DNA of 64,000 nucleotides from a phage: the sequence record PX880099.1; one strand, given 5' to 3'. The notes beneath the pieces are model-generated. The model was not told the origin of the DNA. It ran no database searches and saw only the letters and a list, made by a program, of their open reading frames with translations. The first letter of the stretch is position 1; each line of letters opens with the position of its first letter. Below, piece by piece: positions 4,420 to 55,210 of this stretch. Made by a program: the position numbers and the translations under genes.

Positions 4420-4794
4420 ATGCAAGAGAGTAAAAATGTTCCGTTGAGCAGTGCAACATTGCTTCGCTTCTATAAAGCATGGATTGCCAACTATCCTGCA
4501 ATGAATCGCACAACGAGTGGCTTATGTGGTTGTCTGGTAGATTATGTAGATGATTTTGTTGGTGAGACAACTAGAGAAGAAGATAGAAGATGGCGTGATC
4601 ATTTGTTGGACCGTTTGAAATATGAAATGAGGAAACAATTTACATGTGCAGGGTTGGACTACAATCTTCCGTTCAATGCAGATTGCATGGATTACCTTTC
4701 AGAGTGTATAAACTTGGCGTGTCATACCAACACGTTACGTCTTCAATGGGTGAAAGACAGAATTGAAGATGCAAATAATGCTTGCATTGAATAA
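4420..4794 (+). CDS. hypothetical protein, paralog family A (member 1 of 5)
   Basis: SD GAGAGGAGATTATCATG; shares FYKAW..GLCGCL..LPF..WVKDR motifs with 9603, 12928, 16225, 17530. Confidence 0.6.
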   Translation: MQESKNVPLSSATLLRFYKAWIANYPAMNRTTSGLCGCLVDYVDDFVGETTREEDRRWRDHLLDRLKYEMRKQFTCAGLDYNLPFNADCMDYLSECINLACHTNTLRLQWVKDRIEDANNACIE

Positions 4795-4843
4795 AGATGT
4801 TTGTATAATGGATGACATAACAGATAGCCAATGAGGAGATGAA

Positions 4844-5053
4844 ATGAAGAATTTGAAAACTGTCACAATGTTCTTGACTAATCCTACACGTGTGCAAGCA
4901 CTGGCTAAAGCCAGCCGTGTAGCTGTAGAATTCCAAAACTTTAAGCCGTCCGTTGTGACAGGCAGTGAAACGTGTGTTATCGATTTCATTAACGAATACT
5001 TCCGAGGGAATCCGGTTGGTCGTTACTTTATTAAGGGTCTGAAGGATGCATAG
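4844..5053 (+). CDS. hypothetical protein (69 aa)
   Basis: ORF with SD GAGGAGATGAAATG. Confidence 0.5.
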   Translation: MKNLKTVTMFLTNPTRVQALAKASRVAVEFQNFKPSVVTGSETCVIDFINEYFRGNPVGRYFIKGLKDA

Positions 5054-21992: not shown

Positions 21993-22017
21993 CATATCTG
22001 TAGCAATAGGAGGTCGT

Positions 22018-22248
22018 GTGTTAAATAAAATCGAAGAAGGTTGTATGGCATTTTTGGTAGATAACCCGTTTCCCTTTATGGTTAAGGTCCATGTAGGAGA
22101 GTATTTAGGTTATGACGAATGGGATTGTAGTATCAATAGTGAAATGCACCACTACCAACCAACAATACTTAAGACGGATCAAATGGCGCGTATTACAGTA
22201 GAGGATGAATTGATCATTGAGTTATACGAGAGAGCACTACACAAGTAA
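22018..22248 (+). CDS. hypothetical protein (76 aa, GTG start)
   Basis: SD AGGAGG then GTG 22018. Confidence 0.45.
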   Translation: MLNKIEEGCMAFLVDNPFPFMVKVHVGEYLGYDEWDCSINSEMHHYQPTILKTDQMARITVEDELIIELYERALHK

Positions 22249-22293
22249 GCTAGAACCCACCTAAATCGAACAGAGACGCTCTAAAATAGAAAA

Positions 22294-22319
22294 GGCACCC
22301 ACTTGGGTGCCTTTGTTTT
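22294..22319 (+). terminator. terminator GGCACCCACTTGGGTGCC + TTTGTTTTA at the rightward/leftward block boundary
   Basis: 7-bp stem, T-rich tail; convergent transcription point. Confidence 0.7.
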
Positions 22320-22590
22320 ATTCTTCGTTAGATTGCGTCTCAGACGCGTTAAATTCGGTTTCAGTACAACTTGCTAGGTAACTTATATTTTGCATCACTA
22401 CGACTACAGGTGTTTGAAGTTTATCTTCTAGCCCCGCAGCCACTTGAGCCAAGGCATTATCAATATTTGATTTCCTAACGCCTGTTCCATGTCCTGTTGC
22501 CAAGTAAAGATTACCTTCCCCTTTTTGTGTAGCATTAGCAAAGTAGTAAACGTAATGTGCAAGGTAGTAATCACGGATTTCTTCAGTCAT
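22318..22590 (-). CDS. hypothetical protein (90 aa)
   Basis: ORF with SD AGGAG (reverse strand). Confidence 0.5.
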   Translation of the reverse strand: MTEEIRDYYLAHYVYYFANATQKGEGNLYLATGHGTGVRKSNIDNALAQVAAGLEDKLQTPVVVVMQNISYLASCTETEFNASETQSNEE

Positions 22591-22609
22591 TTTATTCTCC
22601 TAATAAGAA

Positions 22610-22625
22610 AGGGGCCGAAGCCCCT
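22610..22625 (-). other. conserved hairpin AGGGGCCGAAGCCCCT (copy 1 of 3)
   Basis: Identical 16-mer at 34715 and 40883; gives a UUCG-loop hairpin in leftward RNA. Confidence 0.6.
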
Positions 22626-22633
22626 TGAGTGGT

Positions 22634-23449
22634 TTATTTGTTTAAGTGGTCTTCGACCATTTTAATGAAACCTTCATTGCTGAAGGCTGTTGCAGCTTTT
22701 TCTCGGTAAACAAAAACTCCACGATCTTCATAGAGAAGTGTTTCTTCGTAATTAACTCCAGGGTTAACTACAACCATTTTTGTACCCATACTAAGCGCAG
22801 GGAATAATTCCCAATTAAAATTGATAACTTGGTTTGAACATCCTACTACTACAACCAAATCTTGCATGGTCAAAGTATCGAACAAGTGAGCCATATCTGC
22901 ATACAAAGGTGCAGCCTCACCAAAAAATACAACATTAGGCTTCACCCAGTTATAATCATCTATGTTTATACTATTGTAACCAATATCTACCAGTGTTTTG
23001 TAATCTCCAGGATGCATACGGTAAACTACTTCAGGAAGATATCCGTGCACGTGAATAACAGAATCTCTGTCTACACCTGCTCGCTCTAATAGATCATCAA
23101 CGTTTGTCGTCAAGTTTACTACTTGGTTAGGATATTCCTTAAACCACTTTGCTATTTGAATATGTGCAGCATTAGGTTGTACATCTTTAAGCTCAACACG
23201 TCTTTTGTTATAAAATTCGTGTGTTTTGGCATACAAATCCATACCGTTCTCGTCTACACCACCGACCACTGGAAGATCTGGAGATGTTCTAACACGATAA
23301 CCTGCTTGGAAAGCTCCAATATCGCAGACCTCTTCTAAATCATATTCTTCCCATAAGGCACGACCACTATCGGTGTCTGTTCGGAATGTTCTAATCCCAC
23401 TATCTGCACTTAAACCTGCACCGCTTACAAAAATCACTCGTCTTGGCAT
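22634..23449 (-). CDS. Sir2-family (sirtuin-like) protein
   Basis: VIFVSGAGLSADSGIRTFR (GAG..SGI.TFR), TTNVDDLLERAG (TQN.D.LHERAG-like), VIHVHG; no internal Zn-ribbon cysteines seen. Confidence 0.65.
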   Translation of the reverse strand: MPRRVIFVSGAGLSADSGIRTFRTDTDSGRALWEEYDLEEVCDIGAFQAGYRVRTSPDLPVVGGVDENGMDLYAKTHEFYNKRRVELKDVQPNAAHIQIAKWFKEYPNQVVNLTTNVDDLLERAGVDRDSVIHVHGYLPEVVYRMHPGDYKTLVDIGYNSINIDDYNWVKPNVVFFGEAAPLYADMAHLFDTLTMQDLVVVVGCSNQVINFNWELFPALSMGTKMVVVNPGVNYEETLLYEDRGVFVYREKAATAFSNEGFIKMVEDHLNK

Positions 23450-23925
23450 TCTTCCTCCTCATAATCATCATAATCTTCGTCATCCAAATCGTACACTTCG
23501 TCTTGAGAATAACTCACTTCAAAGTAAATATCAAACTCCGCAAACAAACGTAGAATGTTGGACATGCTATAATAATTATCGTAGGCAGATTCAGCTTCAT
23601 AGTAAACATAAAGCAAATGGTTAGCCTTATCATCTTCCAAATATTTCCCGTCTGCATACGCATAGTCTGCATATGCTTTACCTGCATCTTCCACAAGAGA
23701 ACGATCAAGCAGAGTAGGAAATGGTTTCTCTTTTTCTTTTAGTTTGCTCACCAACCAGTGTGCAATATCATGCCAATCTGCATCCTCTCCGCTGAAGCAG
23801 CTTGCGATTTCGCCAAACTTGGCATCTCCTAAGTCTCCGCTAATAGTGATCATGGTTGAACTATTGTAACCACAAGTTTCGCAATTTGAACAACTGTTGT
23901 GCACATGAATTTCTACTTGAAACAT
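23434..23925 (-). CDS. hypothetical protein with N-terminal Cys cluster and acidic C-terminal tail
   Basis: HNSCSNCETCGY near N-terminus; C-terminus DLDDEDYDDYEEEECQDE; stop overlaps Sir2-like start. Confidence 0.5.
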   Translation of the reverse strand: MFQVEIHVHNSCSNCETCGYNSSTMITISGDLGDAKFGEIASCFSGEDADWHDIAHWLVSKLKEKEKPFPTLLDRSLVEDAGKAYADYAYADGKYLEDDKANHLLYVYYEAESAYDNYYSMSNILRLFAEFDIYFEVSYSQDEVYDLDDEDYDDYEEEECQDE

Positions 23926-23936
23926 ATTCCCTCCTA

Positions 23937-23965
23937 TAAAAGAAAAGCCCCCTGAAACAGGAGGC
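23937..23965 (-). terminator. hairpin + U-tract on leftward strand
   Basis: Stem GCCCCCTG/CAGGAGGC (1 mismatch), followed on reverse strand by TTTTCTTTTA. Confidence 0.45.
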
Positions 23966-23983
23966 TTTGTTCAGATATCGGCA

Positions 23984-24637
23984 CTATACCAGACTTTCAA
24001 GGTATTTGTCAAGGGCTTCTTGATCACCTTGACAAACATAGCAACGGAAGTCTTGAGCCGAAGGTTGTTTATTTTCATCCCAGTCCCAATAAACATTACC
24101 CTTATAACGTGAACCAGGAAACTCAAAAGAGGCTGTATGTGTAATGTATCCTGGGCCACCAGTGAAATCACAGAATGAGAATTGGGGGTATGCCGCCTTT
24201 ACTGCCTCAATAAACCAAGCTTTACGATCTAAAGCTTCATTGATGCTATACGCATGTCTCTCCATTTCTTCCCACGTTTTCCAGACACTTCTTTCATCAG
24301 GAGAAAAGACAAGCCATTCTGGAAGGTAGAGAGTGTCATAGTAATCATCATATTCGATCTCGGAGGCGCACGAGGCTGACTCCTCCAGTCTTGAGTAATC
24401 AAAAGCAGAATATACCCACCAACCATCTTCCAGTAAGGCTTTGATAGGGACGAAGCCTTTATCAGCATATTGATCGAATTGTTTGACACGGTGGCTTGTG
24501 CAGTCTTCAAACTCACATTCTAAACGATATGACCCTTTTCGACGAGCCTCAAGACCGTGTGTACTGAAAATAACAACACTTCCTTCACCATCATTACGAT
24601 CTACTTGATAAGCAACTACTGGTTTTGAATTTGACAT
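23984..24637 (-). CDS. hypothetical protein (217 aa)
   Basis: ORF, last gene of leftward operon 23984-26651. Confidence 0.55.
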   Translation of the reverse strand: MSNSKPVVAYQVDRNDGEGSVVIFSTHGLEARRKGSYRLECEFEDCTSHRVKQFDQYADKGFVPIKALLEDGWWVYSAFDYSRLEESASCASEIEYDDYYDTLYLPEWLVFSPDERSVWKTWEEMERHAYSINEALDRKAWFIEAVKAAYPQFSFCDFTGGPGYITHTASFEFPGSRYKGNVYWDWDENKQPSAQDFRCYVCQGDQEALDKYLESLV

Positions 24638-25320
24638 TATTTCTCCTTATCTAGAAGATTATTAGACAAAAACACTGCACGGGCAAAACCACGTGCTGTT
24701 AGTGATCTAAGTTGTTTTGTTTTTGCACTAGCTCCACCTAAGCTTTTCCAACCCCAGAAGCAGCCTATATGATCTACTGGTTTCTTCACTGGTTGAACAA
24801 AACCATTGCCGTGCCAAATACAAGTTTTCTTTGTATACCCATCACGGGTAGGCATTTTAGGATGAAAGCTTCCTTCCTCTTCAAACAAATACCCACCATA
24901 CTCATAAGGATCAAAGTAAAAATCGGGTTTACGCCATAAGGTTGAAAGTTTACCTACTGGGTTCTCAATCATCCAAGGAACATTATATTTGTTACCCAAA
25001 GCTTCCACTACACGAATATTAGCTAAAGCTTCATCTAATTCCTCTGTGCTACGTTCGTGTTTGCTACCACTACCTGCTAACATAGTGCAAGGTGGAAATC
25101 CAAAAATAATATCGGGTTTAGGTATCCCATAATCTTCAGGGTTGAATGTAGAATCTATCCAGGCATTCACATAGGTTATGTTTGGGTGCTCCATCCTAAC
25201 CTCGTATTTACCGTGATCCCCTTCATCAGCGTTTACACAAAAACACTTGTGACCTGCTTCGGCATAACGTAACACCATGATCCCAGATCCGTCAAACATA
25301 GACAAAACTGTTTTACTCAT
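24637..25320 (-). CDS. C5-cytosine methyltransferase-like protein (short, about 228 aa)
   Basis: Motif I-like LSMFDGSG, motif IV-like FGFPPC, motif VI-like ENPVG; start moved to ATG 25320 (SD GGAGG). Confidence 0.45.
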   Translation of the reverse strand: MSKTVLSMFDGSGIMVLRYAEAGHKCFCVNADEGDHGKYEVRMEHPNITYVNAWIDSTFNPEDYGIPKPDIIFGFPPCTMLAGSGSKHERSTEELDEALANIRVVEALGNKYNVPWMIENPVGKLSTLWRKPDFYFDPYEYGGYLFEEEGSFHPKMPTRDGYTKKTCIWHGNGFVQPVKKPVDHIGCFWGWKSLGGASAKTKQLRSLTARGFARAVFLSNNLLDKEK

Positions 25321-25708
25321 TACCCCTCCATTCAAGACAAGCCATAACTTTACGCCAATCACTTTCTGTAAGAAAAATCTCGTTTGCTTTCTTCCACAAA
25401 TCTAAATCGTGAAGGGTTGGAATACGATATGTTAGTTCACAGAATCTATGCTCTTCTTCTGTAATATAACCAAAATGCAGAGCCACATCGTGAAACCAAC
25501 ACCAACCATGCATCTCTCGAACAACATGGTCATGTTGAGACATTGTTTTATGCCGTAAACCTAACCAACAAGGAACGGATACTTTAGTAGTCTTTAATCT
25601 GTGATCAACAGTATTAGAGTATTCAATAATAGCTGTCAGTTTCAATCGTGCTTTTTCTAAATCCTCATGCGTCACTTTGAAATAACTTTCTGAAAGATAT
25701 CCACACAT
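25313..25708 (-). CDS. hypothetical protein (131 aa)
   Basis: ATG 25708 with SD AAGGAGG 8 nt upstream; track start is TTG 25726. Confidence 0.5.
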   Translation of the reverse strand: MCGYLSESYFKVTHEDLEKARLKLTAIIEYSNTVDHRLKTTKVSVPCWLGLRHKTMSQHDHVVREMHGWCWFHDVALHFGYITEEEHRFCELTYRIPTLHDLDLWKKANEIFLTESDWRKVMACLEWRGNE

Positions 25709-25709
25709 A

Positions 25710-26651
25710 TTAATAACCTCCTTCAAAAGGCTTTACTACATGTTGATTAGCTTTAAAACGTTCAACATAGTCGTTTTCACCCATGTTTTCATATAGTTTA
25801 GTAACAACATAAAAGTTTTCCCAAGCATATTCCCTAAACCAACCACTAGTGATGGATGTGCAGACTTTAGATAAAGCCATTATAAAACTTTGCTTAGGGG
25901 TTGGACCTCCGATCTCTTCACCGAAAGGAATTTGTGAACGTTCCAAAGCCAAAACACACGCTTCTTCATAAACACCTAACAGGCGCACATGTTTTGGTTG
26001 AGCAAAAAACTTTTCTTTGCTGGTCATAACTTCACTTCCATCTTTCATATAAGATTTATATGCTGGAGCATCCATTACCGCGATTGCTTCATGGATAGAA
26101 TCATGATCATAAACATACGGAACCTCATCACCTTTAAAGAAGTCTTTACTTTTTACGTTTAAGTTTGGATGAGAGTAAGTGTATGTTTCTTTCTCACGCA
26201 ACTCATAAATACTCTTAAGATTTTCTGGGATCTTTGCGCCCAGTGATCGCATGAAATGAATATCTTTCATAGTTTTAAAGAAGTGAGGACTATCCTTTTT
26301 AAAACGATGACTCATTTTAAGAAGGTAGAGCACATCTAAAGGAGCAACAACGTGTCCAGCGTAAGTTCGACGAATATCATCAGAGTCTTCACAATAACTA
26401 ATCAAAGCTTCTGTGCTATCTCCTTGAGAAGCAATATCGTATTCCAAATGTGCACCAGCTATCATTTTGACATGGCCTTTGTTCCCTTTACGTTCTACAA
26501 GTTCAACAAACTCATCTTGAGAGAACATTTTTGATAATTCTTCCCACTCTTGTTCTGTACACAGGTAATCTAGATCTACACAAGGGCGATACAAGTCTTT
26601 TCCCATGTCCATAGCATGAATTTGTAATGCACGGCTACCAATTAACACCAT
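25710..26651 (-). CDS. hypothetical protein, possible nucleotidyltransferase-like N-terminus
   Basis: LIGSRAL...VDLD resembles GS...DxD; weak. Confidence 0.5.
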   Translation of the reverse strand: MVLIGSRALQIHAMDMGKDLYRPCVDLDYLCTEQEWEELSKMFSQDEFVELVERKGNKGHVKMIAGAHLEYDIASQGDSTEALISYCEDSDDIRRTYAGHVVAPLDVLYLLKMSHRFKKDSPHFFKTMKDIHFMRSLGAKIPENLKSIYELREKETYTYSHPNLNVKSKDFFKGDEVPYVYDHDSIHEAIAVMDAPAYKSYMKDGSEVMTSKEKFFAQPKHVRLLGVYEEACVLALERSQIPFGEEIGGPTPKQSFIMALSKVCTSITSGWFREYAWENFYVVTKLYENMGENDYVERFKANQHVVKPFEGGY

Positions 26652-31736: not shown

Positions 31737-32246
31737 TTAAACAAAATAAAATGGTTGAGAGAGGCCCAAACGATTCTTTGGGTCGTATACATACCAAGCG
31801 TATGCTGTCTTATCTGTTCCACCTGCAACAAACGAAGGCCGTTCTGAAAGGACTATAAGGTTCGTTGGTGGATTCTTTTGATGGAACTCTCGTCGTTTCT
31901 TTGACTCCAAGAAGCCCAACCGAAGAAGATAAATACAAACATCCGCCTCTTTTAAGCTCTTTTCCAAGAACTCCATTGCTAACTTGAATGGAGGATTTGT
32001 GATTATAATGTCGGGACGATTTTCCCATTCATGACTAAAATAATCTTTACCTTCTTCAAGTTCACAATATTCTGAACCTTCAGGAAAATGGCGATAAATC
32101 GCTTCAGCTTCACCTCTACAAGGTTCTGCAAAAACCCAACCTTCTTCCTTTAGATTTTTGAAATCTATAACACTAAACAAACTATTGATTGCTTTTTGCG
32201 GTGTCGGATAATAATCGCTCGTTGGGCGATCATAATCTAATGCCAT
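31737..32246 (-). CDS. putative DNA methyltransferase (NPPF motif, N6A/N4C class)
   Basis: DIIITNPPF (motif IV-like). Confidence 0.4.
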   Translation of the reverse strand: MALDYDRPTSDYYPTPQKAINSLFSVIDFKNLKEEGWVFAEPCRGEAEAIYRHFPEGSEYCELEEGKDYFSHEWENRPDIIITNPPFKLAMEFLEKSLKEADVCIYLLRLGFLESKKRREFHQKNPPTNLIVLSERPSFVAGGTDKTAYAWYVYDPKNRLGLSQPFYFV

Positions 32247-32664
32247 CTAAAATCTCCTCTTTTGTAATATTATCCAACTCTTTAAAGGATGAAATCTCAT
32301 TTAATAATCCTATTTGATCAGCCTCTAGAGGATAAGTGTTTTTATCTGTTTTTCTAGACAGAATATCTTCAACAAACTTATCAATAGCCAAAGAAGAATC
32401 ATAAAATTTTAAAAGTTGGTAATCCATAGGAGATATTTTGTCATCTCTTAGAAATATTTCTAACATGTTTTCAGGAGTATCGTGGTTTAGTTTATGTTCA
32501 CCAAAAATATTAACTTCGTAAACATCTTTGCCAAACCAACGTTTTTTCTTTTCAACAGTATAGGTTTTTGCCACCAGACCATCTAAACAGTTTCTTGCCC
32601 TCTTACATGTTTGACGGTAAGAGTGGATAGCGCCTTCAACAAACTTAGCAGGAACTTGTAACAT
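32230..32664 (-). CDS. hypothetical protein (144 aa)
   Basis: ORF. Confidence 0.5.
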   Translation of the reverse strand: MLQVPAKFVEGAIHSYRQTCKRARNCLDGLVAKTYTVEKKKRWFGKDVYEVNIFGEHKLNHDTPENMLEIFLRDDKISPMDYQLLKFYDSSLAIDKFVEDILSRKTDKNTYPLEADQIGLLNEISSFKELDNITKEEILDGIRL

Positions 32665-32709
32665 TATTAATCTCCTATGTTTAAGAAATGCCCCCGAAGG
32701 GGCAGTTTG

Positions 32710-33402
32710 TTAAATAGCGGTTCCTTCGAAATCCGCCACATTTACGAGATTAATATTTTCAGATTTAGAAGTCAAGTTGTTTTCTGCAACAGATTTTTCT
32801 TCAGTATCCGCCTCGTTACCTGCCACGTTACGAGGTTCTTCTTCACCGTAGGGATTACCGAATTTCAAAAGATTGATTAATTCTTCTTTGGAGAAGTTTT
32901 CTAAATCATCGTCTGTTAATTCAATAATCTCGTCTTGTTCTTCAATAAATGTTTCACCACCAGAAAAAGCATCTCGCTTTTTAGCTACTTCCATAGCCTG
33001 TTCTGGTGTTGCCCCTGCATCAAGAGCAGCTAAAGCAAAGTCTGACCCACTCCCCACTGCATAATATTCTTCATCAATCGGATATGCACGTGTTGGGTTG
33101 TTACCTTCGTGCAGGAAAATACGTCCGTCTGGATGAACAACAAGTGCAATAAACTCTTCATCTTCTTTGTCTGGATCAGAATGAATCATCAAACCAGGGA
33201 CAGCATCGCGTGCTGCTTCGCACTGTAGATTTTGTTCAAACCATTGAAAGAAAGAAAGCACGGAGGTCAGACGACCAGCACCACCTACAAGGTAATCTCC
33301 AATTTTTCGGACCTTTTTGAAATTAATAGAATCTACACGTCCACCAAAAGTTACCTTACCATCACTCAAAATCTTATTTTTGGTTGCAATAATTGTCGTC
33401 AC
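32710..33402 (-). CDS. HslV-like Ntn-hydrolase peptidase (proteasome beta-type) with acidic C-terminal extension
   Basis: MTTIIATKN (Thr right after Met), GGAG, AVGSGSDFALAAL resemble HslV TTIV...GFAGG...AIGSGG..A.AAA. Confidence 0.6.
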   Translation of the reverse strand: MTTIIATKNKILSDGKVTFGGRVDSINFKKVRKIGDYLVGGAGRLTSVLSFFQWFEQNLQCEAARDAVPGLMIHSDPDKEDEEFIALVVHPDGRIFLHEGNNPTRAYPIDEEYYAVGSGSDFALAALDAGATPEQAMEVAKKRDAFSGGETFIEEQDEIIELTDDDLENFSKEELINLLKFGNPYGEEEPRNVAGNEADTEEKSVAENNLTSKSENINLVNVADFEGTAI

Positions 33403-33905
33403 TATTCTTCCTCCTCTGTTAATGTTTTAAGAACCGCTTTCCCGCCATTCACATATTTGCAGATGTATTCTATCGCACGTAGTGTCTCTTTGTCAACAAA
33501 AATTTGATCAGACGTTGCGAGCGGGTTATTAAGAAGATCACTGCAATCACGAACAAGCAGTGCTTTCTTATTAAACAAATTACTTAAGAACAGTAACTTC
33601 GCCTCTTCTTCTGTTATATGCAGAAGGCTAGGATCGGAGCCAGCTATTCCTATTATACAATCAAACAAGCTTTCTTTACTATCAGAAAGTTCTTGAAAAT
33701 GGTTTAAAAGCCAATCTTCTCCTAGACACCAACATTTAAACATTTCCAGTTTATCTCGGAGGGTCATATTCTCTAAAGTAAGAGCAATCTCTTTTTCAAT
33801 ATGGTTTACACAAATTTGACGAAATTCGTTAGGTTTTACGAGTCCCGTTTGATAGCACTCATCTATACCGCTTCTTCCGATAGCTATTGTTGCTACACCC
33901 ATCAA
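33402..33905 (-). CDS. hypothetical protein (167 aa) upstream of HslV-like gene
   Basis: ATGA-coupled to HslV-like ORF. Confidence 0.5.
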   Translation of the reverse strand: MMGVATIAIGRSGIDECYQTGLVKPNEFRQICVNHIEKEIALTLENMTLRDKLEMFKCWCLGEDWLLNHFQELSDSKESLFDCIIGIAGSDPSLLHITEEEAKLLFLSNLFNKKALLVRDCSDLLNNPLATSDQIFVDKETLRAIEYICKYVNGGKAVLKTLTEEEE

Positions 33906-33937
33906 TCCTCCTTATAAATGGCTTCCCTGCCATGTTA

Positions 33938-34696
33938 TTAAATAAACACTTCAGTAATCAGTTTAGACAAACGTCCACGTTTATTATCGTCCGTTGTCAG
34001 TTCAACGTATCCAATAAAATCTACAATTGGCTCACGAACACCTTCTTCATTTTCTGGATACAAAAGTTCCAAAATTTGATGCAGACCATTGCTACGTTTT
34101 TTAATTGCATATGTCTGGCGAACATCGCCTAATACAATAACATGCGTATTAATACCTGCACGTTCAATAAGAAGTTTAAGTGTTTCTGTTGACATAAGTT
34201 GTGCTTCGTCAATAATGACGATTGTATTATCCAGGGTAGCCCCCAACAAATAGTTAGGAATATTCAATTCGATCTTACCTGATCCAATATCGTTTTCCAA
34301 TTTGTTGGCTGTCATGAATTGCTGGAAAATACGTTTTGTAGATTCATAGTGTGCTGCTAGTTTATCTGTTTTATCCCCAGACAAGAAACCAATCTGGTCA
34401 TCTCCGACTTCAGTAGGGTTCTTAATAAAAAGTAGTTTACGGAAGTCTCCTGAACGAAGCATCTGCAAAGCTTTCCATAAAGCAACAGAGGTTTTACCAG
34501 TCCCTGCCGGAGCATTTACAACAGTCAGATCATTCCAAATCATACTTTGAACAATCTTATTTTGGTCCCCTTCAGGCATAAATTCATCTAAACGGTAATC
34601 GTCATTACCTACCGCTTTTGCTGCATAACGGCTTTCAATCTTTGCTGAATTAGCCAGTTTCTGCCGTTGTGTTTTAGCTGCGGTTTTATTTCCCAT
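33938..34696 (-). CDS. phoH: PhoH-like ATPase
   Basis: Walker A NAPAGTGKT; Walker B IIDEAQ; start taken at ATG 34696 (MGNKTAAK). Confidence 0.85.
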   Translation of the reverse strand: MGNKTAAKTQRQKLANSAKIESRYAAKAVGNDDYRLDEFMPEGDQNKIVQSMIWNDLTVVNAPAGTGKTSVALWKALQMLRSGDFRKLLFIKNPTEVGDDQIGFLSGDKTDKLAAHYESTKRIFQQFMTANKLENDIGSGKIELNIPNYLLGATLDNTIVIIDEAQLMSTETLKLLIERAGINTHVIVLGDVRQTYAIKKRSNGLHQILELLYPENEEGVREPIVDFIGYVELTTDDNKRGRLSKLITEVFI

Positions 34697-34714
34697 AGTA
34701 GCACTCCTTTTAGA

Positions 34715-34730
34715 AGGGGCCGAAGCCCCT
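34715..34730 (-). other. conserved hairpin AGGGGCCGAAGCCCCT (copy 2 of 3)
   Basis: Between lysozyme stop and phoH start. Confidence 0.6.
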
Positions 34731-34733
34731 TTA

Positions 34734-35234
34734 TTAGTTGTAAGCATCTAAAGTTCCAGAAGTCAGAACTTTAATTACTCGTTCAGCACGGTTTGGCGTC
34801 TGGCTATACCATCGGCTTTTACGCATGTTTTTACCTGCTTGAGTATAATATGCATTGCTGATTAAAGTCAAGCTATTTTGAAACCCTTCAGCACCTTTTA
34901 ACCCCAACTGGAAAACCATGTTGATTATTCCCAATTTACGAGTATCACTAACCTTATCATAGATTGGTGATAAGATAGTACTGTTTTTTATGTCTCTCTT
35001 CACTTTTGCAACATCGTCAGCAAAGATTTGACGGGCTTCTTTTTCTGTGATAACTCCATTAGTCTTACGACCAAGAAGATTATCTAAGATTTGAATAGCC
35101 TTTGCTTTATCTTTTATTTTAGTCAGAAGGTGTCCTATGCCGACTGTCCAATAACCAAGATGGTCTTGATAAACAGTAAGCTTCAGTCCTTCATCGACTC
35201 GTAGCATATCAAACTCATCTACTACTTTAGCCAT
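34734..35234 (-). CDS. T4-type lysozyme (endolysin, GH24)
   Basis: LRVDEGLKLTVYQDHLGYWTVGIGHLLTK and C-terminal RWYSQTPNRAERVI closely match T4 lysozyme. Confidence 0.95.
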   Translation of the reverse strand: MAKVVDEFDMLRVDEGLKLTVYQDHLGYWTVGIGHLLTKIKDKAKAIQILDNLLGRKTNGVITEKEARQIFADDVAKVKRDIKNSTILSPIYDKVSDTRKLGIINMVFQLGLKGAEGFQNSLTLISNAYYTQAGKNMRKSRWYSQTPNRAERVIKVLTSGTLDAYN

Positions 35235-35241
35235 TTACTTC

Positions 35242-35391
35242 CTATTCGTCGTCTCCTACTCCGTGATCCAACTCGTTAAACAACAGATGTTCTGGAGAAG
35301 TTTCACGTTTTGGTTTCGTTTTCTTTATGTTGGACTTCAGCTCATTTGCCAAAGCACGAGAAAAGATCTTACGTTTCTGTTTACTTTTCAT
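35242..35391 (-). CDS. small basic protein (49 aa)
   Basis: MKSKQKRKIFSRALANELKSNIKKTKPKRE...; below ORF-track cutoff. Confidence 0.3.
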   Translation of the reverse strand: MKSKQKRKIFSRALANELKSNIKKTKPKRETSPEHLLFNELDHGVGDDE

Positions 35392-35396
35392 AATTG

Positions 35397-35657
35397 TTAC
35401 TCCGCAATTTGAGCCATGAGATCACGCAGTTCGGTAAAACCGCCTACGTATGTTACCTCCCCGTTCACTTCAGACAGAATTTGTGGAAATGTGCGTGGAG
35501 GAACTCCGGTAAGATCAACAACTGTTTTAGTCATTGATTCTAAATCATAGTCTTGGTCAAGACTTAAATATTCAAACTGTTTATTGCGCATAGTCAATAG
35601 TTGTTTTGACATTTCACAAAATTGACAGTTAGGTTTACCAAAAATTACAAATTCCAT
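35397..35657 (-). CDS. glutaredoxin (thioredoxin-fold)
   Basis: FGKPNCQFCEMSK CxxC active-site-like; 86 aa; adjacent to rml and nrd genes. Confidence 0.7.
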   Translation of the reverse strand: MEFVIFGKPNCQFCEMSKQLLTMRNKQFEYLSLDQDYDLESMTKTVVDLTGVPPRTFPQILSEVNGEVTYVGGFTELRDLMAQIAE

Positions 35658-36499
35658 TACCTCTCCTTATTAAGTAATACTGCTAAAGACTGTTCAATAC
35701 CTTTATTTAAATCTGATTTTGTAAGATAGTGACTGGTTACTAGTTGTGACTTCACCGGACGTGCTGCTGGAGCATTATAGGTTGAAGCTGATACCGCCGA
35801 TATCTTAACAGGTTCTGGCATCTGTGTCAAGATCTTTTCCGCAAACTCCGCCCAAGAAATAAGATGGCTTCCTGCAAAATGGTAAGTCTTAACAGACCTT
35901 GACCAACCTGTTTTTAATACTTCAAAAATAGCTTCTGCTAAATCTGGAGCATATGTTGGACAAGAGAACTGATCAGCAACAATAATAAAATCACGTTGTC
36001 CATCATTATAGCGAGACAACATGGTTTTTAGAAAGTTATTTCCAAATTCGCTATATACCGAGGCTGTTCGAATAATATATGCATTTGGGTTAACTCCTCG
36101 CACCATTTTTTCACCAAGTTCTTTCGTATACCCATAATTGTTTATTGGGTTAGGTGTAGTATCTTCAAAAATAGGATGAGAATAATTAAAAATATAGTCT
36201 GTGGAAATATGCACAAAATCAATTTTAAGTTTGCTGCACACTGCCGCAATATTTGCAGGGCCATAAGCATTAACAGCCAAAGCAGTAGCAAAATCTTGTT
36301 CGGCTTTATCTACAGCCGTATAAGCGGCGCAATTAATAACACCATCTACATAATCTTCAATAATAGCGTTTCGCACAGCTTCAAAATTTGTAATATCTAC
36401 ACGTTCTTTAGGATAAATTAAAGATACATTTGCAGGGGCAACTTTACGTAAAGCTTGTCCCAGTTGTCCATTACCACCCAATACCAAATATGTTAGCAT
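35657..36499 (-). CDS. rmlD: dTDP-4-dehydrorhamnose reductase
   Basis: N-terminal YLVLGGNGQLG Rossmann motif; 280 aa; ATGA-coupled to rmlC. Confidence 0.8.
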   Translation of the reverse strand: MLTYLVLGGNGQLGQALRKVAPANVSLIYPKERVDITNFEAVRNAIIEDYVDGVINCAAYTAVDKAEQDFATALAVNAYGPANIAAVCSKLKIDFVHISTDYIFNYSHPIFEDTTPNPINNYGYTKELGEKMVRGVNPNAYIIRTASVYSEFGNNFLKTMLSRYNDGQRDFIIVADQFSCPTYAPDLAEAIFEVLKTGWSRSVKTYHFAGSHLISWAEFAEKILTQMPEPVKISAVSASTYNAPAARPVKSQLVTSHYLTKSDLNKGIEQSLAVLLNKER

Positions 36500-37059
36500 A
36501 CACCCTCGCTACGTAACTGTTGAAAAGATTTAGCCATTGCATCTTTTGTTGATAGGATAGGTTTAAAACCTTCATCAAAAATCATATCGAAGCCCCAATC
36601 GATCCCTATATCAGGATCATCCCAACGTAAACTTTGTTCACTAGAAGGGTCGTATGGAGTTGTGCATTTGTATTCAAAGATAGCATCCATACTCAAAACT
36701 ATAAAACCATGTGCCAAACCAGGTGGAAGCCAAAACTGCGTATGGTGTCGTGCACGAAGAACAACACCGTCCCAAGCACCGTAAGTAGGACTATCTTTAC
36801 GTAAGTCTACAGCGAAATCCAATACTTCACCACTTACACAACGAACAAGCTTACCTTGCGGATTATTTGTTTGAAAGTGCATTCCTCGCAAAACACCGAA
36901 GTTTGATTTAGACATGTTATCTTGAACGAAAGTTTGTCTACCAATAATATCTTCGTATTTTTGTTCATTATATGTTTCTAAAAAGAAACCACGGTCATCT
37001 TTATAAACGTCTGGTTTGATAATTACCGCACCTTCAATTTTTGTTTTTTCTACTTTCAT
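36493..37059 (-). CDS. rmlC: dTDP-4-dehydrorhamnose 3,5-epimerase
   Basis: [25 protein letters not shown]; start at ATG 37059 overlapping rmlA stop. Confidence 0.85.
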
Positions 37060-37934
37060 TTTCCCTCCGCTAATTTGAGTAGGTATTGCCCGTACTCTGT
37101 TTTCTTCAGTGAGTTTCCATGATAGACCAAAGTCTCTAAAGAAATCCACCCTTTTTTGAAAGCAATTTCTTCCAGGCACGCAATCTTCAATCCTTGACAG
37201 TTCTCAATAGTCTGCACGAATTGACCAGCTTCCATCAGACTGGCGTGTGTTCCTGTGTCAAGCCAAGTAAATCCTCGTCCGAGAACTTCTACTTGTAACT
37301 TCCTGTCTTCGAGGTAGCTGCGATTGATATCGGTGATCTCCAGTTCTCCACGCGCGGAAGGGGTTACTTCTAATGCACGTTGAATAACAGAGTTATCATA
37401 GAAATACAAACCTGTGACAGCATAATCTGATTTAGGATTTTCAGGTTTCTCTTCAATAGAAATAACTTGACGATTACTCCCAAATTCAACCACACCGAAT
37501 CGTTCAGGATCTTTCACCAAACACCCGAAGATACAAGCTCCGCCCCAAACATCTACCATCTCACTAGCGTTAATCAGTAGTTTACCAAAGCTTTGTCCGA
37601 AGAACAGGTTGTCACCTAAAATAAGAGCAACAGAGTCTTCTCCGATAAAATCTTTACCGATGATGAAAGCGTCCGCAAGACCTCGTGGCTCGGATTGGAT
37701 TGCGTAAGTGAGTTTTATCCCAAACATAGACCCATCTCCAAGAAGATGCTCAAAGTCTTCCTGATCGCCTGGTGTGGTGATGATTAAGATATCCTTAATG
37801 TCAGCCAACATCAATACCGATAAAGGGTAGTAGATCATGGGTTTGTCATACACAGGGAGCAATTGCTTGCTCACACTGCGTGTTACCGGATGAAGGCGGG
37901 TTCCACTTCCTCCCGCCAAAATAATACCTTTCAT
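37056..37934 (-). CDS. rmlA: glucose-1-phosphate thymidylyltransferase
   Basis: [39 protein letters not shown]. Confidence 0.9.
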
Positions 37935-37942
37935 AACCCTCC

Positions 37943-38935
37943 TTAAATCTTCTCACTCCACCATTGAGGGTTGTTTAAGTACCATTCAATCGTTGAGTAG
38001 AGATCTTGTTCAAATGTAGAGTTTGCACTCCAACCCAGTTCAGACTCTATTTTAGAAGGATTGATTTCATAACGCAAGTCATGTCCTTTACGATCTTCAA
38101 CAAAAGTTATCAAGTTGGAAGAAGGGTAGGTTCCTGCTTCTGGATGTACAGCATCCATGTAGTCACAAACCATATAGATGATCTCCATATTGGTTTTGGG
38201 ATTACGTGTTCCAACATTATACGTTTGACCTGGTTCTCCACCTGTTGCCACTTGAAGAATAGCTCGCGCATGATCCTCAACAAAAAGCCAGTCTCGCACC
38301 TGATCGCCTTTACCATACACCGGAATCTCTTTATTCGTCAAGATACTTGTGATGATTTTTGGGATCAGCTTTTCTGGATGTTGATAAGGTCCAAAGTTAT
38401 TGGAGCAGTTGGTTATCACAACAGGTAAACCGTAGGTACGGTACCAAGCTTTCACAAGATGGTCAGATGCTGCCTTAGACGCACTGTACGGGCTTGAAGG
38501 GGCATAAGCTGTCTCTTCGGTAAAGGGAACGCCAGAGTCTGCCATATCGCCGTACACTTCGTCTGTGGAGACGTGTACGAACATCTTCAGTTTATTTTTT
38601 GGGAGGAGCCTTGCAGCTTCCAATAAATTGTATGTGCCAATAATATTGGAGTCGATGAAAACTCGTGGATTCTTGATAGAATTATCCACATGACTCTCTG
38701 CCGCTAAGTGAATGATGAAATCGGGATTGCACTCTACTACTAAACTTTTGACCTGGGTTTCGTTTGCCAAATCTGTTATGCTTAGTTTAACGTGAGTGAT
38801 ATCGCCTACATTCTCAATATCTGCTGCATAGCCCATCTTATCAACGACAAAAACTTCGTTATTGGGATCTTGACAAAGAGAGCGCACCACGGCACTCCCA
38901 ATAAAACCAAGACCACCTGTTACCAGATAGCGCAT
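37943..38935 (-). CDS. rmlB: dTDP-glucose 4,6-dehydratase
   Basis: [30 protein letters not shown] (YxxxK), HVSTDEVYG. Confidence 0.9.
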
Positions 38936-38944
38936 CAGTTCTCC

Positions 38945-39271
38945 TTACCAGACATGTTGAGAAATAATAGTTTCCGTTTTAATGTTATATTTTTCAAGTA
39001 GCTTTGCATAGGCTTCTTTTGCATTCTCATTCAATTGCTCAAGATCTACAGCTATGCTTCCTTCTCCGCCTTCTAAATCAAGGCCATATATGCAATAAGA
39101 CTCATCCGCATCGTAGAAAGGAGAGATGCGGCTTAAGTCAAGACCTTCTTGTAAGAACCAGTTAAAATCTCCGTCAAATTCTTCTTCAATTCTAGGATCT
39201 TCTCCTACAGCCTCTTCCCACTTATTAAAAGGTGCACCCTGTAACATACGCCATTCGATATCAATACCCAT
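38945..39271 (-). CDS. hypothetical acidic protein (108 aa)
   Basis: ORF. Confidence 0.5.
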   Translation of the reverse strand: MGIDIEWRMLQGAPFNKWEEAVGEDPRIEEEFDGDFNWFLQEGLDLSRISPFYDADESYCIYGLDLEGGEGSIAVDLEQLNENAKEAYAKLLEKYNIKTETIISQHVW

Positions 39272-50331: not shown

Positions 50332-51057
50332 TTACTTATTAATAATACCTGCAATATTAGGTTTGACAAAGGTCGATGGTTTCATGATCTTACCTTTATC
50401 ATCAAAGAACACATACACTTTCTGTTTTTCATTATAAACAGCATGAACACCAGTGTATGCTCCTTCTGGACGATTGGCATTTCGTTCTTCAATTGCAGTG
50501 CATTCTTGTGCAATGGCTGAATCGATATCTGAAGTTTTCCAAGTTTTCAGCAACTGTTGTTTAGTTGGATACTTGGAATCATTACTTTTCAATACCTCTT
50601 TAATAATTTTCTTTTCTGGATATTTTGAACGGATTAGAGTGTCACGAGACATACGCATAATACCAGCAGCCATTAGTGCCATTTGAACTGGTTCTGTAAA
50701 TGTTTGTTCCAAAGCATCAAAATCAGTATACACAGTTGGAGTAAAAACATCGCCTACAGCATAGTCCAAGAAATTCATCGTATGTTCTTCACCAAAGAAC
50801 ATGTAAGTCAGATAACTGGATACTACAAAAATATCCGCTGCTGCATCCAAGAGTTCTACATGATCGTTTACTTTCGCGGCTGTTTCATACTCTTTAAGCT
50901 CTTCACGAACGAACCCGATTTGGGACATAAATAGCTCTTGAGTGAATTCAGGTTGTTCACCACCTCGTGCTTTGGCATTCCAATCAATCACGTGCTTTGC
51001 TGCATTTTTGAAAAATTCAGTATCGAATTTAATATCTTTAAAAAAATTCTCGATCAT
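50332..51057 (-). CDS. hypothetical protein, possible MazG-like nucleotide pyrophosphohydrolase
   Basis: VREELKEYETAAK...VELLDAAADI resembles the EExxE...D all-alpha pattern; weak. Confidence 0.35.
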   Translation of the reverse strand: MIENFFKDIKFDTEFFKNAAKHVIDWNAKARGGEQPEFTQELFMSQIGFVREELKEYETAAKVNDHVELLDAAADIFVVSSYLTYMFFGEEHTMNFLDYAVGDVFTPTVYTDFDALEQTFTEPVQMALMAAGIMRMSRDTLIRSKYPEKKIIKEVLKSNDSKYPTKQQLLKTWKTSDIDSAIAQECTAIEERNANRPEGAYTGVHAVYNEKQKVYVFFDDKGKIMKPSTFVKPNIAGIINK

Positions 51058-51449: not shown

Positions 51450-52577
51450 TTATTCTGCTGGTTCCCAAGTGCCTGGGATCATTTCTCGGATACGAACACC
51501 AACAGGTTTTGTTGGAATACCTTCATCTGAAAATTCTTCATACTCTATTTCAACGAACTGATTAATCAAGGTAGAAGCATTCTCTGCTTTACGATAATTG
51601 ATAGTCTCATGAGCATCTTTACGCATTAAGAATTCGACTACTTTACCATTTTCCATCTCACCTGTCAACACTCCATCGCCATTTTTATCACTTTTTGAAT
51701 TTGTTACTTTAACTTCAAGGGTGTGGCGAGGCTTACGTTTAATAACGTCATAAGAACGTTTATCAAATTCGTAAACTCCGTGAGCATTACGATATACTAC
51801 ACCTTCAGCTTTCTCAAGTAAAGCTTTTTCATAGAAAGCATCAAACTGTTCTTGGTTTTCAATATACTCTGTATGAACTACACAAATAAGCTCATCAAGA
51901 CCATAATCCTCCACTACTGCCTTAAGAGCAGTAAGAACATCAACACGTTTTTCAAACGGTAGATCTGGAACTGGAATATCGTATACGTAATAATTCAGCA
52001 AAGGCGTATTTGCATTATGCTTCTTCCAGGCACTGTTAATTTGTTGCAGACTAAGGACACCTAACCCAGCAAACACTTCACCATCAAGAGGATGACCAAC
52101 AACTTCACTAATAAAGTTTGGAATACCTTTCCAATGAGGTGGCAGGTTATACACTTCTCCAGCTTTTGATAAACACTCCCCTTTCATGTTAATCATAGAA
52201 CGTAACCCGTTCAGTTTGTATTGTGCATAACCAGGGAACACAACCCTTTCAGGATAATCTTTATAATCCTGGCATTTCATTGGTGTAGAAGGAACATGGT
52301 TTTCAGCTTCTTCTTTTGTTTTATAATAGCCATTCTTTAACTGTTTTGTCCATTTGGCAAAAGCTTCAAGTTCAGCTTGTTCTTCCGGTGTTGTTTCATT
52401 GGAACGACCAATGTTTTTTGCTTCTGCTGTATAAGATTTTTCTGTGATTTTTCCACCTACCCTTCCATGAGCTACAGTAACAACTGCACCATCTGTATAC
52501 ACTGTCCACTGTTTAAGTTTTCCTTTTGAATCTTTACCGTACAGCGTTTGATTTGTTTGTTGCATTAGTCCTCCCAT
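51450..52577 (-). CDS. ATP-dependent DNA ligase (nucleotidyltransferase superfamily)
   Basis: Motif I YKLNGLR (KxDG-like), motif III HPLDGEVF, motif IV EGVVYR, motif V VIKRK. Confidence 0.55.
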   Translation of the reverse strand: MGGLMQQTNQTLYGKDSKGKLKQWTVYTDGAVVTVAHGRVGGKITEKSYTAEAKNIGRSNETTPEEQAELEAFAKWTKQLKNGYYKTKEEAENHVPSTPMKCQDYKDYPERVVFPGYAQYKLNGLRSMINMKGECLSKAGEVYNLPPHWKGIPNFISEVVGHPLDGEVFAGLGVLSLQQINSAWKKHNANTPLLNYYVYDIPVPDLPFEKRVDVLTALKAVVEDYGLDELICVVHTEYIENQEQFDAFYEKALLEKAEGVVYRNAHGVYEFDKRSYDVIKRKPRHTLEVKVTNSKSDKNGDGVLTGEMENGKVVEFLMRKDAHETINYRKAENASTLINQFVEIEYEEFSDEGIPTKPVGVRIREMIPGTWEPAE

Positions 52578-53319: not shown

Positions 53320-53724
53320 TTATTGAAGTTTAAGTGAACCACGAAGACGTTTCTCTTGCTGATCACGGATATATTGTGGAACATCGTGAATTGAATCATT
53401 ACCGTGCCTATTTTCAACAACTAAAGAGATAACTTGATAACCAAACTCTTCAGCAAGAGCTAGATAAGGTTTAAGTTCTTTCTCTGTGGTTGAAGTATTA
53501 GAAACAATAATCTTGTTAAGATTAGATGCCATAGCATCACGAACAATACCCTGACACCATGCGTGTGCTTTACCTACATTTTCTGGCTTCCAGTCGTAAA
53601 CACCACTTTCTGTGTAATGATATTGATCTGCCTCACAGATAGGCCAATAACCTTCAGAAATAATTTCTGCTACTGTAGATTTACCAGCACCTGAAACGCC
53701 ACGTAAAATGATAAGTTGTTTCAT
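53320..53724 (-). CDS. P-loop kinase (polynucleotide/nucleotide kinase-like)
   Basis: Walker A ILRGVSGAGKST; 134 aa; abuts RNA ligase gene. Confidence 0.55.
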   Translation of the reverse strand: MKQLIILRGVSGAGKSTVAEIISEGYWPICEADQYHYTESGVYDWKPENVGKAHAWCQGIVRDAMASNLNKIIVSNTSTTEKELKPYLALAEEFGYQVISLVVENRHGNDSIHDVPQYIRDQQEKRLRGSLKLQ

Positions 53725-54658: not shown

Positions 54659-55210
54659 TTACTCTCCTTTGATTATTTTGTGATGGTCTACAGTCACGAT
54701 ATCTCGTTTACTCATCATAGAAATTATCTCATCAAAATGCAAGATTTTTCCGTGTGCATCCCAACCCACATCTAACATTTTACCATAAGCTTCATCAGGG
54801 AAAGATCCGTGGGAATGCCCGTGTAGCATGATTGATCCACGACCTTGTTTATTCCAGGAGGCCATAGGGTAATGGCTTAAGACGAAGAACAGCTTCTGAT
54901 ATTTCACTTCGTCATAATACACCACTTCTCCATACTCTGCAAGCACTTCTCGGTGTTTGCTGTAGTCATGGTTCCCAACACAGTAGGTGATATCTCCTTG
55001 GAGACGGGAAGCAATTTTACGGGTATCTTCTTCTGTCCCAAAACAGAAATCGCCTAAATGCCACATCTTGACACCAGGACTCGTAGCACATTTATTCCAT
55101 GCTTCGATCAGTGCTTCTGTCATGTGGTCCATATCCTCCCACGGTCGATATTCAGGAGCAAACTCTCGTATACGTTTGTGCATAAAATGCAAATCACTTG
55201 TAATAAACAT
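54659..55210 (-). CDS. calcineurin-like metallophosphoesterase
   Basis: SDLHFMH, LGDFCFG, VGNHD, LHGHSH. Confidence 0.7.
   Translation of the reverse strand: MFITSDLHFMHKRIREFAPEYRPWEDMDHMTEALIEAWNKCATSPGVKMWHLGDFCFGTEEDTRKIASRLQGDITYCVGNHDYSKHREVLAEYGEVVYYDEVKYQKLFFVLSHYPMASWNKQGRGSIMLHGHSHGSFPDEAYGKMLDVGWDAHGKILHFDEIISMMSKRDIVTVDHHKIIKGE

Follow-up and report, generated by a model that had tools for sequence, protein, structure and literature searches.

A zinc-cysteine-less, CobB-like sirtuin gene and its acidic orphan neighbor in a Phapecoctavirus-like Escherichia phage

Most viral sirtuins belong to one distinct clade that includes the proteins of Serratia phage BF, Escherichia phage V5 and the T5-like phage SP15, and this clade was proposed, from its gene neighborhoods, to strip 2'-phosphates from RNA by ADP-ribosyl transfer in the manner of KptA/Tpt1 (Iyer, Burroughs, Anantharaman, Aravind 2022, PMC9503650). 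The Sir2/CobB proteins of the Vibrio phages phiSt2 and KVP40 were reported to have no zinc ligand site, with salt bridges proposed as a substitute (2016, PMC5107563). Here, we analyzed a 64,000-nucleotide (nt) stretch of phage DNA (sequence record PX880099.1, hereafter the window), in which positions 22634-23925 hold two overlapping open reading frames (ORFs) on the minus strand. The first encodes a sirtuin of 271 amino acids (aa) with an ATG start (Sir2, 22634-23449) and the second, directly upstream, encodes an acidic protein of 163 aa, also with an ATG start (23434-23925), which we refer to as the partner. The 271-aa protein proved unremarkable: its gene had been annotated before, and it falls within a phage-specific clade of sirtuins without zinc cysteines, with the class III sirtuin CobB as its nearest relative among cellular proteins. 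Taken as a whole, the locus is probably best explained by a clade-typical phage sirtuin, likely consuming nicotinamide adenine dinucleotide (NAD+), and a separate orphan protein upstream, their pairing reflecting the gene order of the lineage.

The window comes from a Phapecoctavirus phage. Its region 22000-26000 matched dozens of Escherichia phages of that genus (phAPEC8-like myoviruses, Stephanstirmvirinae) along its entire length at approximately 97% identity. The window Sir2 protein was 100% identical to a gene product of phage dw-ec. In GenBank, relatives already carry the label 'Sir2 (NAD-dependent deacetylase)' or 'Sir2-like protein' for this gene and 'hypothetical protein' for the gene upstream. 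An earlier note on this DNA, made from the sequence alone, had recognized sirtuin NAD-binding motifs in the 271-aa ORF, and profile searches assigned the protein to the sirtuins, not to a non-sirtuin Rossmann family. Indeed, Pfam SIR2 (PF02146) matched it in two stretches with 81 bits (gathering cutoff 24, E-value 1.3e-22), and PHROG 2162 matched residues 2-271 on profile positions 10-271 of 277 (E-value 8.3e-105; E-values are given as E below). Such scores lie far beyond chance. Homologues of the PHROG 2162 type were present in 984 of 50,697 phage records, including T5-like, rV5-like, Mydovirus and KVP40-like phages as well as several jumbo-phage groups. Like the other members of this clade, among them T5 'cobB' (AAX12033), rV5, KVP40/nt-1 and BF (AQW88637), with which it shares 30-52% identity, the window Sir2 has a zinc-less module; identity was highest with T5 (52%) and rV5 (47%), followed by BF (37%), nt-1 (36%) and G17 (30%).

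The structure predictions called for in the earlier note led to the same family. The AlphaFold2 model of Sir2, built with 39 homologues, shows the two-domain sirtuin fold with a predicted local distance difference test score (pLDDT) of 89.9, and in it only the cofactor-binding loop (residues 23-30) was ill-defined. Its top Foldseek match in the PDB was E. coli CobB (1s5p, E 8.5e-19, template modeling score 0.85), followed by Sir2Af1 and SIRT5. This comparison returned 278 PDB matches at E <= 1e-3 and, among the matches listed, 50 out of 50 were sirtuin structures. By sequence, the nearest PDB entry was also E. coli CobB (E 1e-18), followed by the archaeal Sir2Af, Sir2Tm and SIRT5. Against the NCBIfam equivalog and subfamily models of CobB (NF040867, NF001753 and others), Sir2 stayed under the cutoffs, with best scores of 106.6 bits against 243 and 86.1 against 320, and its scores ranged from 86 to 107 bits against cutoffs of 221-395. 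Judged by these scores, the phage Sir2 is a relative of CobB and not a CobB orthologue.

To compare individual residues, we aligned the sirtuins of the window, T5, rV5, Vibrio phage nt-1, Serratia phage BF, E. coli phage G17, phAPEC8 and muut with segments of CobB. The window protein carries GAGLS at residues 10-14 (NAD-binding loop, codons at 23408-23422, minus strand), SGIRTFR at 17-23, TTNVDD at 114-119 (N116, D118) and HG at 135-136, with the codon of the catalytic His135 at 23045-23047 (minus strand). Residues G10, A11, G12, F22, R23, Y80, R84, N116, H135, G136 and E178 were invariant across the eight phage lineages and CobB, and G10, A11 and G12 were also invariant among 39 family members. 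Sir2 is thus like E. coli CobB (1s5p, 6rxj) in its fold, the GAGxS and SGIxTFR motifs, the N and D of xNxD, the HG and FGE motifs and a Tyr-x-x-Arg pair. Class III sirtuins use this pair to bind the carboxylate group of succinyl- or malonyl-lysine. In the phage protein it is formed by Y80 and R83, which align with Y53 and R56 of CobB chain 1s5p (Y92 and R95 in full-length numbering); Y80 was invariant and R83 was kept in most lineages, with Leu in BF and G17.

Unlike CobB, to which it is approximately 27% identical, the phage Sir2 has no zinc cysteines, an altered loop following GxS and an insertion of about 22 aa. Moreover, the Gln of the CobB motif TQNID is replaced by Thr, Ala or Ser in all the phage sequences aligned (Thr115 in the window). 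Overall, Sir2 looks catalytically competent yet divergent. The insertion (residues ~50-74, 23228-23302, minus strand) was found in the sirtuins of the window, phAPEC8 and muut and was absent from T5, rV5, nt-1, BF, G17 and CobB, and so sets the Stephanstirmvirinae proteins apart from their PHROG 2162 relatives. It was modeled as ordered (pLDDT ~89) and differed between the two Sir2 allele types described below.

The absence of the internal zinc-ribbon cysteines, which the earlier note had suspected, was also borne out by the alignment. Sir2 has only two cysteines, C42 and C204, neither of them in the segment aligned to the CobB zinc site, and none of the eight phage lineages had a cysteine aligned to the CobB zinc-ligand segment VRCSQS...DKCHCCQF. 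The zinc-less state is clade-wide and previously reported, not particular to the window phage. The further suggestion that a zinc module may be supplied in trans by the upstream protein is not supported, as the counterpart of the sirtuin zinc ribbon, a small cysteine-free β-module (residues 136-173, 22931-23044, minus strand), is retained in cis. AlphaFold2 modeled it with high confidence (pLDDT 95-96) as strands 136-144, 152-155 and 168-173. The corresponding segment was hypervariable, with indels between Sir2 alleles.

With these residues in place, Sir2 is very likely an active NAD+-consuming enzyme. NAD+ would be held in the Rossmann cleft by GAGxS, F22/R23, N116/D118 and N229. An oxygen nucleophile of a macromolecular substrate would then attack C1' of the nicotinamide ribose, upon which nicotinamide would leave, and His135 would activate the ribose 2'-OH for a second step. 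Such sirtuin chemistry could plausibly meet what a 2'-phosphotransferase reaction needs. As to the substrate, we tentatively lean, with somewhat less than even confidence, toward the processing of RNA 2'-phosphates or nucleic-acid ends in the manner of KptA/Tpt1, as a step in RNA repair by the phage. The gene neighborhoods of related phage sirtuins are consistent with this possibility. In rV5, Rnl1 is followed by cREC (E 3e-15) and then Sir2, with a DNA ligase farther on, while in T5 the Sir2 gene is followed by that of a HAD_SAK_2 'Swiss-army-knife' phosphatase (E 4e-20). In BF, GAP32 and XbC2, the order is NAMPT, a 2H-type 'RNA ligase', a Zn ribbon, Sir2, Nudix and PhoH, and in G17 and RaK2 Sir2 is followed by Nudix.

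Several points weigh against extending this proposal to the window. Unlike its PHROG 2162 relatives, the window sirtuin does not lie beside RNA-repair, Nudix or HAD genes. It stands in its own two-gene unit, and the RNA-repair-type module of the window is about 30 kilobases (kb) away. This module comprises, all on the minus strand, genes for cREC (55578-55922), a metallophosphoesterase (54659-55210), a T4 Rnl1-like ligase (53725-54657), an AAA_33 kinase (53320-53724), an ATP-dependent DNA ligase (51450-52577) and a MazG/PRA-PH-like pyrophosphatase (50332-51057). In rV5, the sirtuin lies inside the homologous module, unlike the window sirtuin. To our knowledge, RNA has not been demonstrated as a substrate of any sirtuin. 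Activity and substrate are both inferred, as our literature searches on phage-encoded true sirtuins turned up no experimental work on this clade.

Another possibility is that the phage protein is a classical NAD+-dependent lysine deacylase like the CobB of the host, which would remove acetyl or succinyl groups from proteins of the host or the phage early in infection and so reprogram metabolism. Its nearest relatives in both sequence and structure (CobB, Sir2Af1 and SIRT5) are deacylases, and the protein has retained the catalytic His, the FGE motif and, as Y80 and R83, the Tyr-x-x-Arg pair of class III sirtuins. Deacylation is also the function given in database annotations, and the 2016 modeling study of a Vibrio phage Sir2 held the same view (PMC5107563). 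However, the host already encodes CobB, and a simple deacylase agrees poorly with the loss of the zinc ligands and of the TQNID Gln, with the altered loop after GxS and with scores far below the CobB equivalog cutoffs. In addition, the sirtuin genes of at least four phage lineages have neighbors for RNA-end or ADP-ribose processing, not metabolic genes. We regard CobB-like deacylation of protein lysines as the second leading reading, somewhat less likely than that of RNA 2'-phosphates. The remaining outcomes, namely free NADase activity, ADP-ribosylation of proteins or an inactive protein, taken together seem about as likely as deacylation. A further comparison is with SirTM, a macrodomain-linked sirtuin ADP-ribosyltransferase, with which the phage protein has in common the sirtuin fold and a small operon and which uses this fold for ADP-ribosyl transfer. 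In SirTM, the catalytic His is replaced by Gln and the gene is linked to a macrodomain gene (PMC8120803). Unlike SirTM, the phage Sir2 keeps HG, and a Pfam scan showed no macrodomain in the proteins encoded on either side of it.

Defense-type SIR2 NADases provide a third comparison. The earlier note had placed the phage gene in this context, as a possible decoy. Seen in this way, Sir2 would be either a decoy or competitor of such systems or an NAD+-depleting effector of host shutoff or superinfection exclusion, with the acidic partner as its inhibitor in a toxin-antitoxin logic. Defense SIR2 domains also lack the zinc ribbon, and, as in ThsA, DSR1/2, SIR2-HerA and SIR2-APAZ, the phage protein has a Rossmann core. 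The two-gene layout with a small acidic protein upstream also resembles a toxin-antitoxin pair. The phage protein nevertheless falls in the branch of true sirtuins (CobB/class III-like), and its top sequence and fold matches are all true sirtuins of the deacylase type, not ThsA, DSR or SIR2-HerA. A search of the PADLOC defense models yielded nothing meaningful for Sir2, the best match, to a candidate-system model, having E 0.0066 and covering 36 residues. Sir2 is a single 271-aa domain that lacks a sensor and, unlike the defense NADases, has no fused or adjacent SLOG, HerA, pAgo or large C-terminal domain. Moreover, the clade occurs in virulent phages, often beside NAD+ salvage genes (NAMPT), which fits regulated NAD+ use and not depletion, and most phages with Sir2 do not have the partner. 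A defense-type role is consequently highly improbable. An anti-TIR factor, Atd1, was reported in Phapecoctavirus, and we considered whether it could be the present locus. Ho et al. (2023) reportedly described Atd1 as a MazG-like enzyme, and it was set aside as a candidate for this locus.

The upstream partner gene is of a different nature. Its product matched PHROG 9509, a family with no assigned function, at E 8.9e-63 (residues 1-162 on profile positions 1-157 of 158). No match was obtained for it in Pfam, NCBIfam or PADLOC, and a Pfam scan of all 21 family members was likewise empty. A search of its profile against PDB sequences gave nothing under E 0.028. Only eight close relatives were found in a collection of 5.8 billion proteins, and an exhaustive HMMER search of 1.84 billion representatives returned 18 matches at E <= 1e-3. 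Two of these, P0136 (HYR_4C repeats) and P0139 (YadA adhesin), were dropped as repeat-amplified chance matches. A search for further partner loci with the distant member P0135 yielded none. The partner was present in about 140 phage records. Within Stephanstirmvirinae, identities were 69-100% in Phapecoctavirus and approximately 37% in Justusliebigvirus, and remoter forms were found in the jumbo phages GAP32, BF, pEa_SNUABM, XbC2 and the RaK2 group. Some GenBank records (PQ571307, PQ571289, MZ501063, PP239276 and MZ501100) wrongly label the partner gene 'major head protein' or 'putative aminoacyl-tRNA synthetase'. The sole trace of the synthetase label in our searches was a weak PhetRS_B1 match (E 0.022) of one family member.

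The AlphaFold2 model of the partner (pLDDT 89.2) consists of a long N-terminal β-hairpin, a short strand, four helices and a C-terminal strand. The hairpin spans residues 2-30 (23836-23922, minus strand; strands 2-15 and 19-30), and the tail from residue 148 to 163 was predicted to be disordered (pLDDT < 50). Fold comparison gave no informative match besides the relatives of the protein, which were recovered in BFVD at E 7e-14 and 1e-9. According to this model, the partner is a small, very acidic orphan with a novel α/β fold. Its isoelectric point is 4.05 and its net charge about -30, of which residues 142-163 alone contribute -15 (23437-23502, minus strand), in agreement with the very acidic tail described in the earlier note. 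Nearly all distant family members likewise end in an acidic tail, which has an aromatic residue close to its end.

The partner has five cysteines: C12, C15 and C18, which lie in the N-terminal sequence SCSNCETCGY, C43 and C160. The N-terminal cluster on which the earlier note had remarked is thus present, yet only part of it is conserved. Among the 21 family members (19-84% identity), C15, C18, G38 and C43 alone were invariant (C43 codon, 23797-23799, minus strand), whereas C12 and H9 varied. Residue C160 was conserved just where the tail overlaps the Sir2 start codon, and is hence constrained by that codon. Set beside a four-ligand zinc ribbon or knuckle, the partner has three invariant cysteines, with C15-x-x-C18 at the tip of the modeled hairpin; it probably binds a metal through these three residues. 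In common with GAP32_166, RaK2_00016 and the pEa_SNUABM homologues, it has the N-terminal hairpin, the D/N-C-E-x-C-G and A-x-C-F/Y-G motifs, a helical middle, a C-terminal strand and the acidic tail with its aromatic residue. These homologues, all uncharacterized, differ in location, as their genes lie near tk and after a DUF5856 gene, 36-45 kb from Sir2. The idea that the partner could be a DNA mimic or a regulator is a possibility; the DNA-mimic or inhibitor proteins of the Ocr/ArdA type, which are likewise small, very acidic and encoded among non-structural genes, offer no more than an analogy. Unlike these mimics, with which no sequence or fold similarity was detected, the partner has three conserved cysteines suggestive of a metal site, a feature absent from Ocr/ArdA.

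We then considered how the two genes are arranged. At their junction (23434-23460, minus strand), read from the sequence, the Shine-Dalgarno sequence and ATG of Sir2 and the stop codon of the partner are interlocked. The ORFs overlap by 16 nt, in line with the overlap of stop and start pointed out before, and the partner stop TGA (23434-23436) falls 13 nt downstream of the Sir2 ATG (23447-23449). The Sir2 Shine-Dalgarno sequence GAGGAGG (23454-23460) coincides with the EEEE codons of the partner tail. The junction is arranged in the same way in phAPEC8, ESCO5, iGC_PHA_EC001 and AMO3598. Sir2 may be translationally coupled to the partner by this arrangement. A programmed frameshift fusing the two ORFs was ruled out, the overlap having no slippery heptamer.

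Terminator-like hairpins lie on both sides of the two genes, each at the same place as a terminator annotation in Schickermooser. One, with an 11-bp stem and then a T run, occupies the interval between the upstream 217-aa gene and the partner ribosome-binding site (23944-23968, minus strand), and the other, with a weak T-tract, is located just 3' of the Sir2 stop (22609-22626, minus strand). Within the 3' end of the upstream gene, a match to the sigma-70-like promoter consensus TTGACA-18 nt-TG-n-TATAGT (11/12 positions, 23983-24012, minus strand; consensus match only) was observed. This candidate extended -10 promoter stands upstream of the hairpin at 23944-23968, not downstream, and its role is uncertain. 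Transcripts from it would have the hairpin at their very start, where it could serve as an attenuator or a 5' stabilizer; the promoter match could also be due to chance. In our preferred reading, the partner would be an early protein and would be co-transcribed with Sir2.

The possibility that the two proteins form a dedicated pair has to be weighed here, since the earlier note had described them as coupled. In such a pair, the acidic three-cysteine protein would bind the sirtuin, for example at its 22-aa insertion or zinc-less module, and would regulate, target or structurally complement it ('Zn in trans'), or the tail would gate the active site. The 16-nt overlap, the Shine-Dalgarno sequence within the tail codons and the hairpins that flank the two genes as a unit speak for such a pair. 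At all Stephanstirmvirinae loci examined, namely those of the window, Schickermooser, phAPEC8, ESCO5, iGC_PHA_EC001 and AMO3598, the two genes were adjacent, with the exception of muut, in which an HNH-like gene interrupts them. In phage muut, this 246-aa gene lies exactly between partner and Sir2 (locus L002, 4468-5208). Its HNH_3 endonuclease match is weak (E 1e-4) and does not reach the Pfam cutoff, and the gene resembles an inserted homing endonuclease.

Four observations weigh against our preferred explanation that the pairing is lineage gene order. First, the two genera of the subfamily, Phapecoctavirus and Justusliebigvirus, have both retained the adjacency and the start/stop overlap despite a partner identity of approximately 34%. 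Second, every lineage with a partner homologue has a Sir2 gene somewhere in its genome. Third, the ~22-aa insertion unique to Stephanstirmvirinae sirtuins coincides with an adjacency that is equally confined to Stephanstirmvirinae. Fourth, in BF, GAP32 and XbC2, a different and unrelated Zn-ribbon-like protein of about 72 aa (CxxC...CxxCxC) is encoded directly upstream of the zinc-less Sir2. This protein is conserved among the three phages, and its gene was located at 4738-4953 in BF (locus L013), 2253-2489 in GAP32 (L022) and 2264-2482 in XbC2 (L024), and it overlaps Sir2 by 4 nt in GAP32. In RaK2 and G17, a small membrane protein occupies its place. 

The genomic distribution of the two families nevertheless argues for lineage gene order. 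Only about 140 of the ~980 phage records with Sir2 also carry the partner, and a hidden Markov model of the partner detected nothing among the Sir2 neighbors of T5, rV5, nt-1, BF, G17 and muut. Conversely, partner relatives elsewhere never adjoin Sir2: at nine loci outside Stephanstirmvirinae with a partner relative, no Sir2 was found within the flanks, and jumbo phages carry both genes with 36-45 kb between them. The conserved neighbors of these relatives are instead a DUF5856 gene and thymidine kinase. At several of these loci (L003, L004, L015-L017 and L021), the relative follows the DUF5856 gene, thymidine kinase is a few genes away, and in some cases a Phage_T4_Y13G gene comes after the relative. 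At the locus of pEa_SNUABM_12 (L016), a gene for a NADAR protein, which would process ADP-ribose, was observed three genes downstream of the partner relative.

Within Stephanstirmvirinae, adjacency adds nothing beyond synteny because the whole four-gene block (217-aa gene, partner, Sir2 and 90-aa gene) is syntenic throughout the subfamily. Overlaps between neighbors are also the norm in this part of the genome: 12 of the 24 adjacent same-strand gene pairs there overlap, five of them by at least 11 nt.

Across sequenced phages, the locus 22634-23925 is a recombination mosaic. Two Sir2 allele types were seen, of 271 and 266 aa, which are 68-72% identical and have a near-identical C-terminal stretch of about 70 aa in common. 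The N-terminal and middle segments of the partner also come in two types each, and every combination was found among sequenced phages. In the window, the partner is of the phAPEC8 type (99%) and Sir2 of the Schickermooser type (100%). Phage phAPEC8 has the same partner type as the window, but its Sir2 is merely 72% identical. Conversely, AMO3598 (Justusliebigvirus) has a 34%-identical partner beside a 96%-identical 'Phapecoctavirus' Sir2 allele. All four pairings of partner type and Sir2 type were found, indicating that the alleles reassort, which also counts against a dedicated pair, as does the sirtuin β-module that is intact in cis.

From gene order and sequence, we conclude that the partner and Sir2 appear to be co-expressed neighbors in one subfamily, not a conserved two-component system. 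The coupling proposed in the earlier note is accordingly reduced to an adjacency confined to the syntenic block of one subfamily, in which half of the adjacent pairs overlap and alleles reassort. A dedicated functional pairing of any kind is improbable, and the binding, regulation or gating set out above is unlikely. Still more unlikely is the specific version in which the Stephanstirmvirinae partner would dock on the 22-aa insertion or the cysteine-free β-module, gating or targeting NAD+ consumption, with the Zn-ribbon gene product of BF, GAP32 and XbC2 acting likewise.

Other genes of the surrounding region were also identified. In the gene block that holds the two ORFs, a gene upstream of them (25710-26651, minus strand) encodes a protein of 313 aa with DUF7277 (E 8e-14) and DUF7275 (E 1e-75) domains and adjoins that of a Dcm-like DNA methyltransferase (24637-25362). 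By homology to the Schickermooser annotation (31787-35065), the same minus-strand block includes, at approximately 34000-39000, a full deoxythymidine diphosphate (dTDP)-rhamnose pathway (rmlA/B/C/D-like), a glutaredoxin and a class Ia ribonucleotide reductase.

In itself, the finding is of little weight, as the gene is annotated in dozens of near-identical phages and both the zinc-less phage sirtuin and its functional prediction have already been published. The partner family is small, recombining and fast-diverging, and such families often prove to be host-interaction or anti-defense factors. Should the dedicated pairing be true, phage sirtuins would on repeated occasions have shifted a metal-binding module to a subunit of its own, one that evolves fast. 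The sirtuin itself is carried by about 980 sequenced phages, including T5, and NAD+ is recognized as central to the conflict between phages and bacteria. If the activity on RNA 2'-phosphates were true, this enzyme would be the first member of the sirtuins to have a nucleic acid as its substrate.

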